Source: Candidatus Spongiisociaceae bacterium
Lineage (GTDB): Bacteria; Actinomycetota; Acidimicrobiia; Spongiisociales; Spongiisociaceae
Reading direction: 5' to 3'
Assembly (NCBI GenBank): GCA_965219685.1
Contig: CBDCOH010000002.1
Location: 3,584,001-3,648,000 of the forward strand
DNA length: 64,000 nt
Positions 1 through 6,869 of the stretch are shown piece by piece. The notes beneath the pieces were generated by a model. The model searched no databases and had not been told where the DNA came from. It saw only the letters and a list, made by a program, of their open reading frames with translations. Made by a program: the position numbers and the translations under genes. How positions within the stretch are numbered: the stretch's first letter is position 1; every line of letters begins with the position of its first letter.

Positions 1-245
1 TTTTGGAGACCGCCGATGTCCTCTCGAATGCTGGCGACCTCGGTTTTGACGCCGGCGACGTCGTTGCGGATGGTGGCCACGTCCTGTTGGAGGTCGGTGA
101 TGTCCTTGCGGATGGTTTGCTGCCCGGTCTCGATGTTGTCCAGCCGGTCGAGGATCTGTGTGAGAATGCCAGCTAGCGCCTCGAAGGCCGCGTCTGTCCT
201 GGCATTGCCCGTTGTGGGGAACCGAACGACTGCGGATTGGGCCAT
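1..245 (-). CDS. Coiled-coil protein, runs off the window edge
   Basis: Translated by hand: ATG at 245 after purine-rich AAGGGGGAAC, then MAQSAVVRFPTTGNARTDAAFEALAGILTQILDRLDNIETGQQTIRKDITDLQQDVATIRNDVAGVKTEVASIREDIGGLQ with heptad periodicity. No stop before position 1. Confidence 0.6.
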   Translation of the reverse strand, partial: MAQSAVVRFPTTGNARTDAAFEALAGILTQILDRLDNIETGQQTIRKDITDLQQDVATIRNDVAGVKTEVASIREDIGGLQ

Positions 246-585
246 GAACGTTCCCCCTTACCTGTGATCGCTTATAGGGTAACTATACCACCCGACCGTT
301 AGATACCGTCAACAAGGTTGGACATCTAACTGGTTCAAGTTTTTCGACTCCAACGAAAAGTGGAAATACCAGGCGCTTTGCGTGGGGCGGATCAATACGG
401 ATGGGACGAGGATGATCGCCGTGTCCGGACCGGCGGCGATGTTTGTGCTCGCGGCACCCTTGACTATGCACGATGGGTGTGACAGCGGCAACCCCTACTC
501 GCACTCGAACGGGACTAACCGGTGGGCACACAGGATCCGCCGCTCGAGACCCCGCCTAGGTGCCGGCGGGGCTGCCAGTGGGTCC

Positions 586-1701
586 CTACTCCAGCCTGTC
601 GACCAATCTCTGGAACTTGCCGGCGGAGAAGGACACGGGAGTGTCCTCCACCCGGTTGCCGGTCTTGTCGATCAGCAGGGCCCGGGATGTGTACGGGCCG
701 CCGTAATGTCTCCACACCGCGTTGGAGCCGTCCCAGAGGTTGGTGAAGGTCAGCCCGTAACGTCGAACGAAGCCCTCGCCGGAACTCCGGGGATTCCAAT
801 GATCCGGGTTGATACCCACCACTGTGACCTTGTCTGTGTTCTTGCGAGCGAACTGCTCGACCTCCGGAGCATGCCTCCGGCAAGTCGGTCACCATTCCGC
901 CCAGAACCAGAACAGCACCCCCTTGTCGCCCGTGAACAGCGAGCGGAGGTTGACGGTCTCGCCGCTGGAGAGGTCGGTCAGGTCGACATCGGGGACGTCG
1001 TCGGAGATGGTGACCGGTTCGGGCTCGGTCGTCTGGTCGTCCTGTTTGAGCAGCGCCCGGTGCAGGAAGGTGGCCATCTCGGCTCGGGTGACCGAATCGT
1101 GGGGGCAGTAGCGGAGCGGGCCGGTCGCGCATCCGGTGGTGATCCCGGCTGTGGCCAGGGCGTCGATGTTCGGCGCGTGGGTGTTGCCTGCGGTGTCCGT
1201 GAAGCCGGCCGGGCCGGCGGGTTCGAGAGCGAAGGCACGGGTGAGGAAGGTGGCCATCTCGGCTCGGGTGACGGCCTGGTCGGGGCAGTAGCGGAGCGGG
1301 CCGGTGGCGCATCCTTTGGTGATCTCACGGTCGGCGAGTTCCTCCGCGTAGCGCGACCACCACTCTGAGGCGTCCACGTCGTCGAAGCGGGAGGTCCCTC
1401 CGGCGGTGACGTCGCCGCCGAGGACCCGGATCAGCCATACGGCCATGACCCATCGCTCGATCTTCTCCTGCGGGCAGAATTCGCCTTCCCCGCACTCGGT
1501 GCCCTCGAACACGCCCGACTCGGCCAGGGCATTGATCGCCGGCTCGTGGAAGTCGCCCGCACCGACATCGGAGAACCCGTCCGCGCCCCCGGCCGGCGGG
1601 GAGGCCAGAAGCGACGCCAGCAGTACCACGACCAGCGCCAACGGGGCGGCCCGACGGCGCCCGGGCGATGCTGTGTGCTCACGGGTTGTCACGGCTGCCA
1701 C
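586..1701 (-). CDS. Exported SLH-domain + TlpA/redoxin-fold protein, probable selenoprotein (UxxC, Sec TGA at 889-891)
   Basis: Signal peptide and three SLH repeats (..VTRAEMATFL..). Reads FWFWAEW-TGA-PTCRRHAPEVEQFARKNTDKVTVVGIN... and stays open into ORF 586..822 (same frame, no other stop). Confidence 0.85.
845..859 (-). promoter_or_regulatory. Candidate bacterial SECIS hairpin CGAGC-AGTTC-GCTCG
   Basis: 5-bp stem with AGUUC loop, 29 nt 3' of the TGA at 889-891. Identical in all three paralogs. Confidence 0.7.
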
Positions 1702-1868
1702 CCCCCTGTCGGGTCGGGCCTCATGATAGTTCTCCGGATGGGTCCGGTGTCGGATACCACCCGGCGCCCGTGGACGGGATGCCGGCCAGCCGTGTCGACG
1801 AGGCCGGAGGATTCAGGACCGGGTCCGGGGCGATCCCCCACGTGCGCAGTCGGTCGTCACGAACCGGA

Positions 1869-2978
1869 CTACTCCAACGCCGCCAGCAACCTGTCGATCA
1901 GGTCCGGGTCGAAGTACGAGTATTGAGGCGAGGGCACCGGGTTGCCCTCCCGGTCGACGAAGCGGAACCTCACCCGGTCGCCCTGCTTGCGCAGCAGCCG
2001 GAACTCGGACCAGGACCCGATCCCGTAGTGCGCTGTCGTTGCCCAGGGCTGATCGTCGCGAAGGATCGGAAAGGTCAAGCCGTGGGTGGCCACGAAGTTC
2101 GTGATCGCGTTAGGAGAATCCTCGGAGTTGATCCCTATGACCTTGACCCTATGGGTGTTGTCACGAGCGAACTGCTCGACCGCGGCCGCTTCCCGCCGGC
2201 ATCTCGGTCAGCCAGGCGAGAAGAACCAGAGCAGGAGGGGCTTGTCGCCGGTGACGAACGAGCGGAGGCTCACGGTGTCTCCCGTGGAGACGTCGGTCAG
2301 GTCTGTGTCGGGGACATCGTCGGAGATGGCGACCGGTTCGGGTCCGGTCATCCGGTCGTTCTGTTTGAGCAGGGCCTGGTGGAGAAAGGTGGCCATCTGG
2401 GCTCGGGTGACCGCCTCGTTAGGGCAGTAGCGGAGGGGGTCGGTCGCGCATTCGCGGGTGATCCCGGCTGCGGCTAGGGCGTCGATGTCCGGCGCGTGGT
2501 GGTCGCCTTCGGTGTCCGTGAAGCCAGCCGGGCTGGCGGCTTCGAGGGCGAAGGCCCGGGTGAGGAAGCTGCCCATCTGGGCTCGGGTGACGTCCTGGTC
2601 GGGGCAGTAGCGGAGGGGGCCGGTGTCGCATCCTTTGGTGATCTCGCGGTCGGCGAGTTCCTCCGCGTGGCGCGACCACCATTCGGAGGCGTCCACGTCG
2701 GCGAAGCGGGAGGTCCCTCCGGCGGTGACGTCGCCGCCGAGGACTCGGATCAGCCATACGGCCATGACCCATCGCTCGATCGGGTCCTGGGGGCAGAATT
2801 CGCCTTCCCCGCACTCGGTGCCCTCGAACACGCCCGACTCGGCCAGGGCGTTAATCGCCGGTTCATGGATGCCGCCCGCACCGACGTCGGAGAACCCGTC
2901 CGCGGCCCCGGCGGGGAGCGGACCCAGCACCGAGGCCACCAACACCACGGCTACCAGGACGGTCGGCCAACCCGTCAT
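1869..2978 (-). CDS. Exported SLH-domain + TlpA/redoxin-fold protein, probable selenoprotein (UxxC, Sec TGA at 2208-2210)
   Basis: Signal peptide and three SLH repeats. Reads LWFFSPG-TGA-PRCRREAAAVEQFARDNTHRVKVIGINSED... in frame with ORF 1869..2093. Confidence 0.85.
2164..2178 (-). promoter_or_regulatory. Candidate bacterial SECIS hairpin CGAGC-AGTTC-GCTCG
   Basis: Same hairpin, 29 nt 3' of the TGA at 2208-2210. Confidence 0.7.
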
Positions 2979-3055
2979 GCGGCGGAGGCGTCAACCTATT
3001 GGGGCGGCGAATACCGGACCAGGTCCGATAGACCTGGTCGGCAGTGGACGCGGCG

Positions 3056-4090
3056 TCATACCAACTCGTCCAATAGGTTCTCGACGCGGGTCCGGTCGTA
3101 GGGTTCGGTCCTCTCCATCAGCCGGTTGCCGAACGGATCCAGGAGCAGGAAGTCGGACGTGGCGTCCATCTCGTAGTGTTCCCATGCCTCACGGGAGTCG
3201 CTCCAGAGCACAGTGAAGGTGGTGCCCTTGTCAGCTACGAACTCCTGGGCTATCTCCAGGGTTCCTATGCCGCCGACGCCTATGACGATGAGGCGGTGGG
3301 AGTTGTCCCGAGCGAACTGCTCGATGGCCGGAGCCTCTTCGTTGCACGTCTCTCAGAACGGCGACCAGAACCAGAACATGAGCGGCTTCTCGCCCTTGAC
3401 CACCGACCGCAGGCTCACCAACTCGCCGGTAGCCGTGTCGAACATCCGGACGTCGGGCACGTCGTCGGAGATCTCGATCGTGAGCGGCGCCTCGGTGGTG
3501 GTCGGCGTGGGTGCCTGGGTGGTGGTAGGCGCCTGGGTGGTGGTGGTCGGTGGCTCGGTGGTGGTGGTCGGCGCTTGGGTGGTCGTGGTGGGCGCGTCGG
3601 TCGTGCTGGTCGTCGGCGCCTGGGTGGTGGATGTCGCCGGTGGTTCCTCGACGGTCGTGGAAGTCACGCCGGTCCCGGCCGTGTCGACGGTGGTGGAGGT
3701 GACTGCGGCGACCGTCGTGGCTGCGGCGGCCGTGGTGGTGGTGCTGTCCGGGACGGCCGATGTCGTCGTGGCGGCCCGGGCCGCGGTGGTGCTGGTTTCC
3801 GGCGCCGTCCCGTCCTCGGAGGGGTCGCGGTCAGCCACGCTGGTCCCGGGGTCGGGCATGGTGGTCCCGGTCGTGGTGGAGGCGCCGGCATCCACGGCGT
3901 CGGCTGCCACCGTGGTGGTGGTTCCGCTCCCGCAGGCGGCGACCATCAGGGCCGCTGCCACCACCCCGGCGTACCAGCCGGGCAACGGACGGGTCGGCCG
4001 TCGCTCCCGTGGCCGACGAGACCGCCTCGGACCCGCGCCCCGGTCCGGATCGACCGTGGCGCTCCCGCCTTCGTCGGCGTGCTGGCCCAT
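3056..4090 (-). CDS. Lipoprotein with Thr-rich stalk + TlpA/redoxin fold, probable selenoprotein (UxxC, Sec TGA at 3353-3355)
   Basis: Lipobox VAAC and TTTTQAP repeats. Reads FWFWSPF-TGA-ETCNEEAPAIEQFARDNSHRLIVIGVGGIGTLEIAQEFVADKGTTFTVLWSDSREAWEHYEMDATSDFLLLDPFGNR...DELV-TGA(3056). The downstream half is missing from the ORF track. Start codon uncertain. Confidence 0.85.
3309..3323 (-). promoter_or_regulatory. Candidate bacterial SECIS hairpin CGAGC-AGTTC-GCTCG
   Basis: Same hairpin, 29 nt 3' of the TGA at 3353-3355. Confidence 0.7.
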
Positions 4091-4340
4091 GGAACAACGG
4101 CTCGGGCTGCGACGAACCGCGCGGGTGTCGCCTGTCACCCACCTTCTCGCTGTCACCGGCTAAGCATAGAGGCTGGTGAGAGTTGCCGATCGGGCAGTGC
4201 AGGGCCACCCGAGGGCCGCAGACGCCGGCTGCGCCGCCGCCGCCGAGGCTCGACCGCCCGCGGAGGGGTCGCGCAAGGGCAACCCGGCCGGATGGCGGTC
4301 GTATCCTCCCGCTACGATCCGGTTGGCCGATCAGGTACCG

Positions 4341-6869
4341 GTGTTGAGAGAAATCCTCAGAAGGGAGGGCGGCGCCCTCCGAGCCTCGTGGCTTGTCCTC
4401 GCGGGCGTCTCCGCAGCGCTGCTGCTGCTTGCCACGCCCGCGCGGGCGGAGTCGCCCTGCGGCTCCCCGACGGTGATTCCCGACGGCTCGGAAGCTCTGC
4501 GGTCCGACTGCGAGGTGCTGTGGGAGTTCTACACCGGTCTCGAAGACCCGGGCGTACTGGACGATGCCGACAACCCCAACGCCTGGCTACCTACCATCCC
4601 GTTCGTCGAGTGGCAGGGACTCGAGGTCCGGAACGACCGGGTCGTAATCCTCTCCCTGTCCGGAGCCGAGTTGAAGGGACCCGTCTCCCCCGGCCTCGGT
4701 GGCCTGGCCGGCCTGCGGGCCCTCTACCTGAACTCCAACCAACTGACCGGTCCGATCCCCCCCGAACTGGGTGACCTCTCGGAGCTCGTCCTGCTGCAAC
4801 TGGACGACAACGGGTTCACGGGACCGATACCCCCGGAGATAGGGCAACTGGCGGAGCTGGTCTACCTTCTCCTGAACAGCAATGACCTCACGGGACCGAT
4901 CCCGCCACAGTTAGGCGACCCCACCAAGCTGAAGTGGCTGTACCTGTTCGGCAACGAGCTGAGCGGGCCGATACCCGAGGAGCTGTCGCGCCTGGACGAC
5001 CTCGAGAAACTCGCCCTGGGCGACAACCAGCTCACCGGGTCCATCCCGCCGGAGCTGGGGAGGCTCGTGAACCTGACCCTGCTGGCGCTCAACGACAACC
5101 AACTCAGCGGGTCCATCCCGCCGGAACTGGAGTCCCTGACCAAGCTGGAACAGCTGTATCTCCGCGGCAACCGGCTGACCGGTCCCATCCCTCCCGGCCT
5201 CGATCAGGTGCTCGAGCCCGCCGACAAGGACGAGATCGATCCCTTCTGGGCGGATCCGCTGGGTCTCATCGCCCACGCGGCCTACTACCGCCAGTACAGC
5301 CTCGGCTCGACTGTCTGGCACGTGTGGTTCTGCGATGTGCCGCTGGGCGACGCGCCCGTCGTGGCGAACGAGGTGGTGAGGCGCCTGAACCGGGAGGTGG
5401 TCTCCTACTTCGAGTGGGTGTCGGGCGACCGGTACCGGCCGAGCTTCCAAGCGGAGGGTTGGCTGGCCGGTGACAGCCGGTCGGACTGTGAGGCCGCGCT
5501 GGAGGCCGAGGACCCCGAGATGCCCATGCTCCTGGTCGAGAACAGCCCCGCCAACGACGGCTACGCGGCGGGCCGGGGACTGGTGGTGCTAGGAGGCGGC
5601 ACGGTCGTCCCGACACCGGGGTTCCGCCAGGCGCGCCTGTCGACCGTGGTCCACGAGATGGGCCATGCGTTGGGCTTCCCGCACTCCTTCGGCGGCAGGA
5701 TCAGATGGTCGCCCGAGGGCCAGCTCAGCGGGGTCTACGAGTACGACAACCCGATGGACATGATGAGCGGCGACCTCGCCCTGGGGCTCGACACCGGGAC
5801 GATCGCCGCCAACCGGTACGCGGCGGGCTGGATCGAACCGGACGAGGTGGCGGTCCACGGGGCGGGAACGACAGCCGTCTACGAGCTCCGCCCGCCTGGT
5901 GCGGGCGGCACCCAGATGCTGGTCCTGCCGGGGAGGAGGCAGGGCGTGTTCACGGTGCTGGGAGCCAGGGTCGCCCTGGGTCATGATGTGGCCATCCCGC
6001 GAGCGGGGGTCGAGGCCTACCGCATCGACCAGAGGGAAGCGGCGTGCACCTACCCCTGGCGGGGCGCTTGCTCGGGAACCGAGCGGCGTACCCAGCCCTA
6101 CCCGCCCGCCGAGCCGGGAGCAGGTTACGGCGACGATCTGGGCAGCCGCGGCCGGCGCCGCCTGGTCGATCACGTGTACCGCCCGGGCGACGTGTTCGAG
6201 ATCGGCACGACCACGATCGAGGTGGTCGAGAAGGTCGGCAACAACTACCGGGTGCGGGTGGCGGACTCCTCTGCGCCGCCGCCCCCGCCGGAGCCCGCCC
6301 CCGGTCCGTCGTTCGACGGGCGCTTCTCCGACGACGACGGCAGCGTCCACGAAGCCGACATCGAAACGATCGCCGCGCTGGGCATCACCGTCGGCTGCAA
6401 CCCGCCCGACAACAACCGTTACTGCCCCGGCGACGTCGTGACCCGGGCGCAGATGATGGCCTTCCTGGCCCGCGCCCTCGGCGAGGAGGGCGACCCCGAG
6501 GTGACTACCGGCCGGTTCTCCGACGTGCCCGACAACGCCTGGTACCTGCCGTACCTGGAGCGGCTGGCCGACCTCGGGGTGGTCGAACCCTACGAGGACG
6601 GCACCTTCCGCCCTGACGAGCCCATCACCCGGATCGACATGGCCGTGCTCCTAATGCGAGCATTCCCGGGCATCGACGAGGTGACCGAACCCGAGGGAGT
6701 CTTCGTCGATGTGCCCGCAGACGCTCCGCACGCGGGGGCGGTCGAGGGCATCCTGGCGGCGGGGGTCACCAAAGGATGCTCCGAGGACCCACTCTCCTAC
6801 TGTCCCGGCGGGGCCGTGCCCCGCGACCAGATGGCGTCCTTCCTGGCGCGAGCCCTGAAAGCCGGCTAG
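4341..6869 (+). CDS. Secreted LRR + zinc metallopeptidase (metzincin-like) + C-terminal SLH protein
   Basis: Signal peptide ending PARA; about 8 24-aa repeats LxxLxLxxNxLTGPIPPELG; HEMGHALGFPH and a YDNPMDMMS Met-turn-like motif; Pro linker; three SLH repeats. Start uncertain (ORF open from 4176). Confidence 0.8.
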   Translation: MLREILRREGGALRASWLVLAGVSAALLLLATPARAESPCGSPTVIPDGSEALRSDCEVLWEFYTGLEDPGVLDDADNPNAWLPTIPFVEWQGLEVRNDRVVILSLSGAELKGPVSPGLGGLAGLRALYLNSNQLTGPIPPELGDLSELVLLQLDDNGFTGPIPPEIGQLAELVYLLLNSNDLTGPIPPQLGDPTKLKWLYLFGNELSGPIPEELSRLDDLEKLALGDNQLTGSIPPELGRLVNLTLLALNDNQLSGSIPPELESLTKLEQLYLRGNRLTGPIPPGLDQVLEPADKDEIDPFWADPLGLIAHAAYYRQYSLGSTVWHVWFCDVPLGDAPVVANEVVRRLNREVVSYFEWVSGDRYRPSFQAEGWLAGDSRSDCEAALEAEDPEMPMLLVENSPANDGYAAGRGLVVLGGGTVVPTPGFRQARLSTVVHEMGHALGFPHSFGGRIRWSPEGQLSGVYEYDNPMDMMSGDLALGLDTGTIAANRYAAGWIEPDEVAVHGAGTTAVYELRPPGAGGTQMLVLPGRRQGVFTVLGARVALGHDVAIPRAGVEAYRIDQREAACTYPWRGACSGTERRTQPYPPAEPGAGYGDDLGSRGRRRLVDHVYRPGDVFEIGTTTIEVVEKVGNNYRVRVADSSAPPPPPEPAPGPSFDGRFSDDDGSVHEADIETIAALGITVGCNPPDNNRYCPGDVVTRAQMMAFLARALGEEGDPEVTTGRFSDVPDNAWYLPYLERLADLGVVEPYEDGTFRPDEPITRIDMAVLLMRAFPGIDEVTEPEGVFVDVPADAPHAGAVEGILAAGVTKGCSEDPLSYCPGGAVPRDQMASFLARALKAG

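Follow-up and report, generated by a model that had tools for sequence, protein, structure and literature searches.

What is encoded by the TGA codon that closes each of three neighbouring genes in a Candidatus Spongiisociaceae bacterium (Actinomycetota; Acidimicrobiia; assembly GCA_965219685.1)? The genes lie in tandem on the minus strand at positions 586-4156 of the stretch analysed here (the window: 64,000 nucleotides of contig CBDCOH010000002.1, positions 3,584,001 to 3,648,000) and would be transcribed in the order gene 3, gene 2, gene 1. Under translation table 11, their open reading frames (889..1701, ending ...FWFWAEW; 2208..2978, ending ...LLLWFFSPG; 3353..4156, ending ...FWFWSPF) all close at TGA just after the thioredoxin (Trx)-fold strand. 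When this codon is read through, the frames stay open for 100, 112 and 98 further codons in genes 1, 2 and 3, to positions 586, 1869 and 3056, respectively. The TGA then falls on the first cysteine position of a CxxC motif, giving UPTC, UPRC and UETC (U, selenocysteine, Sec), followed in each gene by (V/I)EQFAR and a normal stop. An earlier reading, made from the sequence alone, had described these endings and stop-free continuations and proposed that the genes encode selenoproteins; all three endings and all three continuations were reproduced here. Of the extent it gave, 586-4090, the lower bound stands; the upper needs a small correction, since gene 3 can be read in an open frame as far as 4156, and where it truly starts is not fixed.

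We propose that the array consists of intact selenoprotein genes, in which UGA is decoded as Sec by the cell's own SelA, SelB, tRNA-Sec and SelD together with a selenocysteine insertion sequence (SECIS), and that the products are exported oxidoreductases of the DsbE/DsbF/ResA type. We hold this reading to be very probable. What carries it are the recoding signals, the Sec machinery, the conservation and selection of the genes, and their fold and domain architecture, all of which the analysis shows. All checks set out with the earlier reading that were carried out came out for it.

The TGA is conserved well beyond the array. In a family alignment of 25 rows, made of the three window genes and 22 genes from 15 relatives in two genera, it occupies a single column in every row, and no further stop or frameshift is present. 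Among the 41 related genomes, all seven others of the genus and all eight of genus g7 have a best match at E ≤ 2.9e-46 with exactly one TGA. Moreover, family members share a 16-nt motif, TCGAGC(A/G)GTT(C/T)GCTCG, which starts 32 nt after the T of TGA and occurs only four times in the 4.4-Mb genome, each time at this distance from a family TGA. Because the codon never leaves its column in the 25 rows and is the sole companion of this motif genome-wide, its shared position is far beyond chance. Logan contigs from four runs of a single sample, which may be the source sample and is then not independent, span all three TGAs and show no alternative letters. We also compared selection on the two sides of the codon, in the genes with S-layer homology (SLH) repeats, to which genes 1 and 2 belong, and in the lipoprotein group of gene 3. 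The dN/dS ratio (Nei-Gojobori) past the TGA is 0.32 in the SLH group (119 pairs) and 0.30 in the lipoprotein group (21 pairs), against 0.34 and 0.28 ahead of it, all values being rough because dS is about 1, near saturation. Purifying selection is thus the same after the TGA as before it, with no neutral decay. With the column complete and selection alike on both sides, the earlier argument that three chance nonsense mutations at this codon are very unlikely is borne out.

As RNA, the motif forms a hairpin with a 5-bp stem (CGAGC/GCUCG) and a 5-nt loop (A-G-U-U-C/U), whose apical loop begins 34 nt past the UGA and whose sequence doubles as the codons of (V/I)EQFAR. The helix between nt 33-37 and 43-47 is paired in 230 of 230 cells (46 distinct sequences, from which the distant Sec form L062 was excluded because the motif is missing from it), compared with 9-41% for slid controls. 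Two compensatory changes were observed: A-U to C-G in one sequence (protein LAQFAR), and C-G to U-A in four (protein EQFAQ), in which the replacement of R by Q is accompanied by a synonymous change, GUC to GUU, that preserves the pair, so that here an RNA signal fixes a peptide motif. Synonymous sites of the motif are frozen: the codon of Ala +14 is GCT in 25 of 25 rows despite the GC-rich genome, and the codon ahead of GAG ends in C; the base just past the stem, the third base of Arg +15, is free (top-codon share 0.52). The hairpin is missing in four of the five class-level homologs that carry Cys at the TGA column (L045, L049, L053 and L061), the fifth, L058, keeping a remnant. Scanned with a pattern made of the TGA, the codon of the second Cys and the hairpin, 401 genomes of the phylum gave 13 sites in 8 genomes, three of them outside the class, and the reversed control gave none. 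This makes the SECIS/EQFAR module a cheap and specific probe for genome searches.

The bacterial SECIS model, as given in the legend of Fig. 2 of a review (PMC13188914), has a 5-bp stem, a 5-nt loop with a G in the first two loop positions, a spacing of 16-37 nt and a limit of -7.5 kcal/mol. The array hairpin agrees with this legend in its 5-bp upper stem, in its 5-nt loop, where G at position 2 precedes a U, and in its 34-nt spacing; it departs from the model in being nearly invariant across the whole class and in fixing the peptide motif EQFAR. A scan of window positions 500-4300 against Rfam returned no relevant family, its sole match being by chance (E 0.6). A further helix, upstream of this one (nt 12-17/23-28), seemed convincing from gene 1; with pairing in just 61.6% of cells, in shifting registers, it was rejected as a conserved element.

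The genome, 96.7% complete and GC-rich, contains all four genes of the Sec machinery that the sequence-only reading proposed to look for. selC, the tRNA-Sec gene, scores 77 bits and is called SeC with anticodon tca by ARAGORN; selA scores 370 bits; the wing domain of selB lies within a 633-aa frame adjoining selA; and selD (L012, G000:C2:2564589-2565512, minus strand) scores 367 bits. selD has an in-frame TGA of its own in the active-site motif GAG-U, and would itself be a selenoprotein. Its hairpin, GCGCAG-GUC-CUGCGC, is comparable and places GU at +37/38 from the UGA, near the +39/40 of the array genes.

Homologs with Cys in place of Sec complete the picture. Cys stands at the TGA column in L031, L032, L045, L049, L053, L058 and L061, and in L031 and L032 this column is the first Cys of a CxxC motif. 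A further homolog from the same genus, L070 (G006:C1:1769500-1772800, minus strand), has TGC at the codon within an uninterrupted frame of 386 aa from stop to stop, and the layout of genes 1 and 2 (signal peptide, three SLH repeats, redoxin domain). The Cys/TGA pairing expected of a selenoprotein family is therefore present, down to the level of the genus. The downstream hairpin of L070, ATCGAGCAGTTCGCTCGA, is still intact while its codon is TGC, so that this gene looks like a recent Sec-to-Cys conversion carrying a fossil SECIS. L058 (G047:C2), a Cys form with the motif CTPC, keeps VEQVAR and a 4-bp hairpin remnant, GAGC-AGGUC-GCUC, and may be another such conversion under way.

The family is also wider than this locus. 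In a survey of 301 Acidimicrobiia genomes at a threshold of E ≤ 1e-12, 37 genomes matched, and among the 51 matches listed 43 have a TGA, accompanied in one case by a TAG, while none is present in the other 8; the UGA redoxin family is class-wide in Acidimicrobiia. In a maximum-likelihood tree of 54 rows, drawn without the fourth paralog described below and without L070, the window genes fall in three paralog groups, each with members of both genera: the lipoprotein group (7 rows, support 100/96), the gene-2 group (2 rows, 99/94) and the gene-1 group (16 rows, 100/97). These groups are old, and all are nested in a clade of 48 rows, of which 46 are Sec forms and 2 are Cys forms. Genes of the gene-1 and gene-3 types lie at most about 2 kb apart in eight relatives (G001, G002, G003, G005, G006, G007, G017 and G019), and the complete triple is present in this genome (G000) and in G002.

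What kind of enzyme do the complete frames encode? Read through, all three match Redoxin (PF08534; 58, 46.5 and 37.1 bits for genes 1, 2 and 3, cut-off 26.6) and AhpC-TSA (PF00578; 55.9, 51.8 and 36.2 bits, cut-off 26), and in all three the match crosses the TGA; PF13905 is matched as well. For the gene-1 domain, AlphaFold2 gave, from an alignment of 54 sequences, a model with a pLDDT of 95.5 and a pTM of 0.90, which places U47 immediately ahead of helix 48-63. The top Foldseek matches are 1lu4 (TM 0.78/0.85) and 3ios (TM 0.81/0.88), then ResA, within a TM range of 0.77-0.88. The sequence search gave the same order (DsbE, E 1.5e-13; DsbF, E 1.5e-12).

The two closest structures, Mycobacterium tuberculosis DsbE (MPT53, Rv2878c, 1lu4) and DsbF (Rv1677, 3ios), share with the array a WFW-x-x-W-CPxC context and are, like it, actinobacterial and extracytoplasmic, a table in PMC3792642 listing both as extracytoplasmic Trx-like proteins with a signal peptide. 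They differ in having CxxC, in keeping the cis-proline (judged from the alignment), and in being without SLH repeats or a long linker. DsbF is a lipoprotein, as gene 3 is predicted to be, and DsbF and DsbE are reported to be disulfide-forming enzymes. Bacillus subtilis ResA, Bradyrhizobium TlpA and Escherichia coli CcmG/DsbE have the same fold (Foldseek ranks 3-17) and are reductases fed by CcdA or DsbD; these are anchored in the membrane rather than on the wall, and we saw no cytochrome c maturation context beside the array. Because their scores fall far below the cut-offs of the NCBIfam models (ResA NF002854, 48 bits against 170; DsbE TIGR00385, 29.1 against 123), the array proteins are relatives and not members of the named ResA/DsbE/TlpA subfamilies. 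Nor are they members of NF041054, 'ResA-like WAxxUGC motif-containing protein', a curated ResA-like selenoprotein that shares the W-A-x-x context with gene 1 (WAEW-U): the score reaches 21 bits where the cut-off is 300, and UPTC stands in place of U-G-C. A cis-proline is almost universal in thioredoxin-fold oxidoreductases. The corresponding column, residue S116 of the gene-1 domain, which aligns to QP of 1lu4 and was judged from the alignment, is Ser in 27 of 54 rows, namely all 25 clade rows and the Sec forms L041 and L055, and Pro in the other 27.

The domains ahead of the redoxin would place the proteins at the cell surface. Whole-protein SLH scores are 56.6 bits for gene 1 and 53.2 for gene 2. 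The three repeats of gene 1, mutually 36-38% identical, score 19.6, 32.6 and 20.7 bits one by one against a cut-off of 20.8, and every SLH repeat carries a Cys pair (TECGEGEFC; GCxTGPLRYC, as GC...PLRYCP). Both proteins have a hydrophobic N-terminus ending in A-G-A ahead of the first repeat, read by eye. The lipobox, also read by eye, was recognised in window gene 3 (V-A-A-C) and in four orthologs read at full length, the whole set showing LIAGC, VTAC, VAAC and GAAC; the linker of about 150 residues behind it, rich in Thr, Pro and Ala, is of the same kind and of variable length in these orthologs. The earlier assignment of two signal-peptide proteins with three SLH repeats and one lipoprotein is in line with these readings. 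The genome has two CsaB-like pyruvyl transferases (PS_pyruv_trans, 99.2 and 83.8 bits), which may make the wall-polymer ligand of SLH repeats. Genes 1 and 2 share 86% identity in their SLH modules versus 52% in their redoxin domains, which hints at gene conversion or at a stronger constraint on the anchor. Short-read contigs break within the near-identical SLH stretches 1412-1501 and 2731-2820, and one 148-nt contig has a T>C difference at 2745. The features of the array are collected in the table below.

Features of the selenoprotein gene array and its divergent neighbour, in window coordinates
Feature	Position	Strand	Evidence
Gene 1: predicted signal peptide, three SLH repeats and DsbE/ResA-like redoxin with Sec; 371 aa read through	586..1701 (stop 586-588)	-	Pfam; orthologs in 15 relatives
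Gene 1, putative Sec codon TGA, motif WAEW-U-PTC	889..891	-	TGA column 25/25
Gene 1, SECIS core hairpin CGAGC-AGUUC-GCUCG, nt 33-47 from U of UGA	845..859	-	Pairing, conservation
Gene 1, three SLH repeats, each with a Cys pair	1036..1581	-	Single-repeat Pfam scan, internal alignment
Gene 1, redoxin (Trx-fold) domain	655..1002	-	Redoxin 58 bits, residues 234-349; model pLDDT 95.5; Foldseek 1lu4, 3ios
Gene 2: predicted signal peptide, three SLH repeats and redoxin with Sec; 369 aa	1869..2978	-	Pfam; ortholog in G002
Gene 2, putative Sec codon TGA, motif SPG-U-PRC	2208..2210	-	TGA column 25/25
Gene 2, SECIS core hairpin	2164..2178	-	Pairing, conservation
Gene 2, SLH module	2337-2900	-	Alignment with gene 1 module
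Gene 2, redoxin region	1872-2327	-	Domain alignment
Gene 3: predicted lipoprotein signal, Thr/Pro-rich linker and redoxin with Sec; up to 366 aa	3056..4156 (stop TGA 3056-3058)	-	Translation, Pfam
Gene 3, putative Sec codon TGA, motif SPF-U-ETC	3353..3355	-	TGA column 25/25
Gene 3, SECIS core hairpin	3309..3323	-	Pairing, conservation
Gene 3, predicted lipobox cysteine, Cys75 of the longest frame, V-A-A-C	3932..3934	-	Read by eye; lipobox kept in orthologs
Gene 3, Thr/Pro/Ala-rich low-complexity linker	3482..3931	-	Translation; orthologs with the same kind of linker
Gene 3, redoxin region	3128-3466	-	Domain alignment
Divergent neighbour, 897-aa surface protein with leucine-rich repeats, HExxH and SLH (context only, not an array member)	4176..6869	+	Domain scan

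How such proteins might work can be outlined from their parts. SelB with Sec-tRNA would bind the hairpin while the ribosome sits at the UGA, and Sec would be inserted. The products of genes 1 and 2 would be exported by way of their signal peptide and then tethered to the cell wall through the three SLH repeats. That of gene 3 would be lipidated, its copy of the domain sitting on a flexible Thr/Pro-rich tether about 150 residues long. From its place at the N-terminus of helix 1, the selenolate would attack a substrate disulfide or an oxidant, and Cys+3 would resolve the intermediate through a selenenylsulfide. Export, wall binding, the substrates and the way in which electrons flow (as in an oxidase, a reductase or an isomerase) are predictions in this outline. 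Since the SLH repeats carry Cys pairs and the RCC1 repeats of the fourth paralog two Cys per blade, the Cys-pair-bearing surface proteins of the genome are plausible substrates. One could go further and imagine an envelope-spanning selenium redox relay, in which gene 3, by means of its tether, would carry redox equivalents between a membrane partner (the CcdA/DsbD_TM homolog or an oxidase) and the selenoenzymes bound through SLH (those of genes 1 and 2 plus the RCC1 fusion), which would maintain the disulfides of a Cys-rich surface proteome, the change from cis-Pro to Ser being an adaptation to selenenylsulfide chemistry. We give this idea little weight; the proximity of genes 1 and 3 in eight relatives of two genera is compatible with it and does not show it.

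Could the array be explained without Sec? That the three genes are pseudogenes, with three nonsense mutations, a decaying redoxin and SLH stubs left over, is what the databases would suggest, since the TGA is where gene callers stop and where all 47 of the 47 database entries end. We regard it as next to impossible: all 25 homologs, drawn from two genera, have the TGA at one and the same catalytic codon and are free of other stops and frameshifts, dN/dS past the TGA (0.30-0.32) is at the pre-TGA level, the state is common to a 48-row clade with 46 Sec forms, and the Sec machinery is present. Hardly more probable is that UGA is read as Cys or Trp, by near-cognate decoding or under a reassigned code. 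The same-genus homolog with TGC does indicate that Cys works at the site, but TGA is a true stop at the end of gene 3 and of the fourth paralog, each gene has a single internal TGA that always falls on the catalytic site, and such a reading leaves a conserved hairpin with compensatory changes and a complete Sec system without a role.

Two further alternatives concern what the genes produce. Bacterial Sec insertion competes with release factor 2, and termination at the UGA might be frequent or dependent on selenium supply, the main product being a catalytically dead SLH wall protein with its signal peptide and three SLH repeats complete and the full selenoenzyme a minor or conditional one. Such a dual output would be compatible with selenoprotein genes and would not replace them, and we find it unlikely: truncation splits the Trx fold midway through its active site and would leave a stub with half a domain at its end, gene 3 would give only a linker, and the base after UGA in genes 1 and 2 is C, a weak termination context. 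It is somewhat easier to imagine, although still improbable, that the proteins are surface peroxidases or scavengers of oxidants or electrophiles, using their selenol in the way of GPx or Prx, and not protein disulfide oxidoreductases. AhpC-TSA and Redoxin are their best Pfam families, the cis-Pro that positions protein substrates is Ser throughout the clade, and Sec is kinetically advantageous with peroxides according to the text of PMC13188914. The motif, though, is UxxC as in thiol-disulfide exchangers and not the PxxxTxxU of peroxiredoxins in the same review, and the nearest structures are DsbE, DsbF and ResA rather than peroxiredoxins.

Several observations weigh against reading the array as exported DsbE/DsbF/ResA-type selenoenzymes. 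Selenium insertion and expression are predicted from sequence, as is export, the signal peptides and the lipobox having been assigned by eye. Because cis-Pro is Ser in the whole clade, the chemistry may differ from that of DsbE or ResA, and a wall-bound enzyme would have no obvious way to reach a membrane redox partner. On the RNA side, the 19-nt core hairpin has an energy of -6.8 to -7.7 kcal/mol, which straddles the limit of the SECIS model in the figure legend cited above; covariation rests on two pairs and five sequences, because three of the five stem pairs never vary; and L062 (USSC), without a canonical hairpin, sets the true count of sequences with the hairpin at 46 of 47, although it may use another structure. 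The near-saturation of dS adds to these points.

The array does not account for all TGA redoxins of the genome. A fourth paralog (L063:1240-4261; G000:C2 ~237.2-240.3 kb, minus strand) of about 1000 aa combines 12 RCC1 repeats (348.8 bits) and SLH with the same Sec redoxin and SECIS; its database entry covers only a 350-aa piece. The TGA genes looked at beyond this four-paralog family are selD and one further redoxin, L064 (G000:C2:638439-638699, plus strand), a fifth and more distant TGA redoxin with the motif FWAEW-U-PACRRE behind a lipobox-like LAAC and a Thr/Ala-rich linker. Its hairpin differs (CGACGGG-AGUUG-CCCGUCG, starting ~12 nt past the UGA), which suggests a second SECIS geometry in the same genome.

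The surroundings are rich in surface proteins. The genome has 45 SLH matches, many of them just upstream of the window, in a dense cluster of SLH genes at G000:C2:3562238-3580260 with frames of 713-793 aa, which places the array at the edge of a surface-protein island. The divergent neighbour on the plus strand (4176-6869) combines leucine-rich repeats, a metalloprotease-like HExxH motif (VVHEMGHALGF) and C-terminal SLH repeats. The single CcdA/DsbD_TM homolog of the genome is far from the array. A scan of window positions 1-4600 for promoters and terminators gave nothing above shuffled controls.

How much of this is new? Predicted families of UxxC selenoproteins, with domains resembling Prx, TlpA or thiol-disulfide isomerases, have been on record since 2004-2005 (Table 1 of PMC13188914; PMC9312934; PMC1088965), so that the kind itself is not new. 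The definition given in two of these sources, the same conserved domain with the same Sec motif (PMC9312934, PMC13188914), applies to the array proteins, which combine PF00578 and PF13905 with UxxC. By domain and motif, the catalogued families resemble them in having the Trx fold of PF00578/PF08534/PF13905 with Sec first in UxxC, and they too were predicted from Sec/Cys pairs and SECIS elements. As far as the catalogue entries go, the array family differs from them in what its domain is joined to (a signal peptide with three SLH repeats, a lipoprotein tether, or an RCC1 propeller with SLH), in having four paralogs in one genome, and in carrying Ser at the cis-Pro position. The earlier description of an expanded family of exported selenoenzymes thus fits a class-wide family of an already catalogued kind. 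The searched literature contains no report linking selenoproteins with SLH anchoring, as the sequence-only reading had suspected, with the limit that the review supplementary tables and BSepDB, which may list these genes, were not covered; in the same literature we found no lipoprotein-tether or RCC1 selenoprotein architecture, no four-paralog expansion, no class-wide SECIS/EQFAR module and no cis-Pro loss. As variants of the catalogued kind, the surface-anchored architectures, the expansion to several paralogs and the exchange of cis-Pro for Ser are new. Sec use in another order of Acidimicrobiia is described in a 2026 preprint (10.64898/2026.04.03.716425).

Standard annotation cuts these genes short. 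When residues 215-371 of gene 1 were compared with 5.8 billion proteins, 47 of 47 matches cover at most 36% of the query region, i.e. they end at the TGA, and they are called 'hypothetical protein' or 'S-layer homology domain-containing protein', much as the earlier reading had anticipated. One of them is from 'Candidatus Spongiisocius sp.', and the nearest named contigs are Acidimicrobiia metagenome-assembled genomes. According to PMC5649159, selA and selB occur together in most bins of sponge symbionts, the pair being missing in most of their close relatives; given this pattern and the truncated homolog named 'Candidatus Spongiisocius', the array genes are concrete candidate targets of the Sec machinery of sponge symbionts. 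A whole family of predicted surface enzymes is mis-annotated across Acidimicrobiia, so that the selenoproteome and the surface redox capacity of the class are underestimated, and Sec would here be placed outside the cell, in small cofactor-free thiol oxidoreductases tethered to the wall or the membrane.

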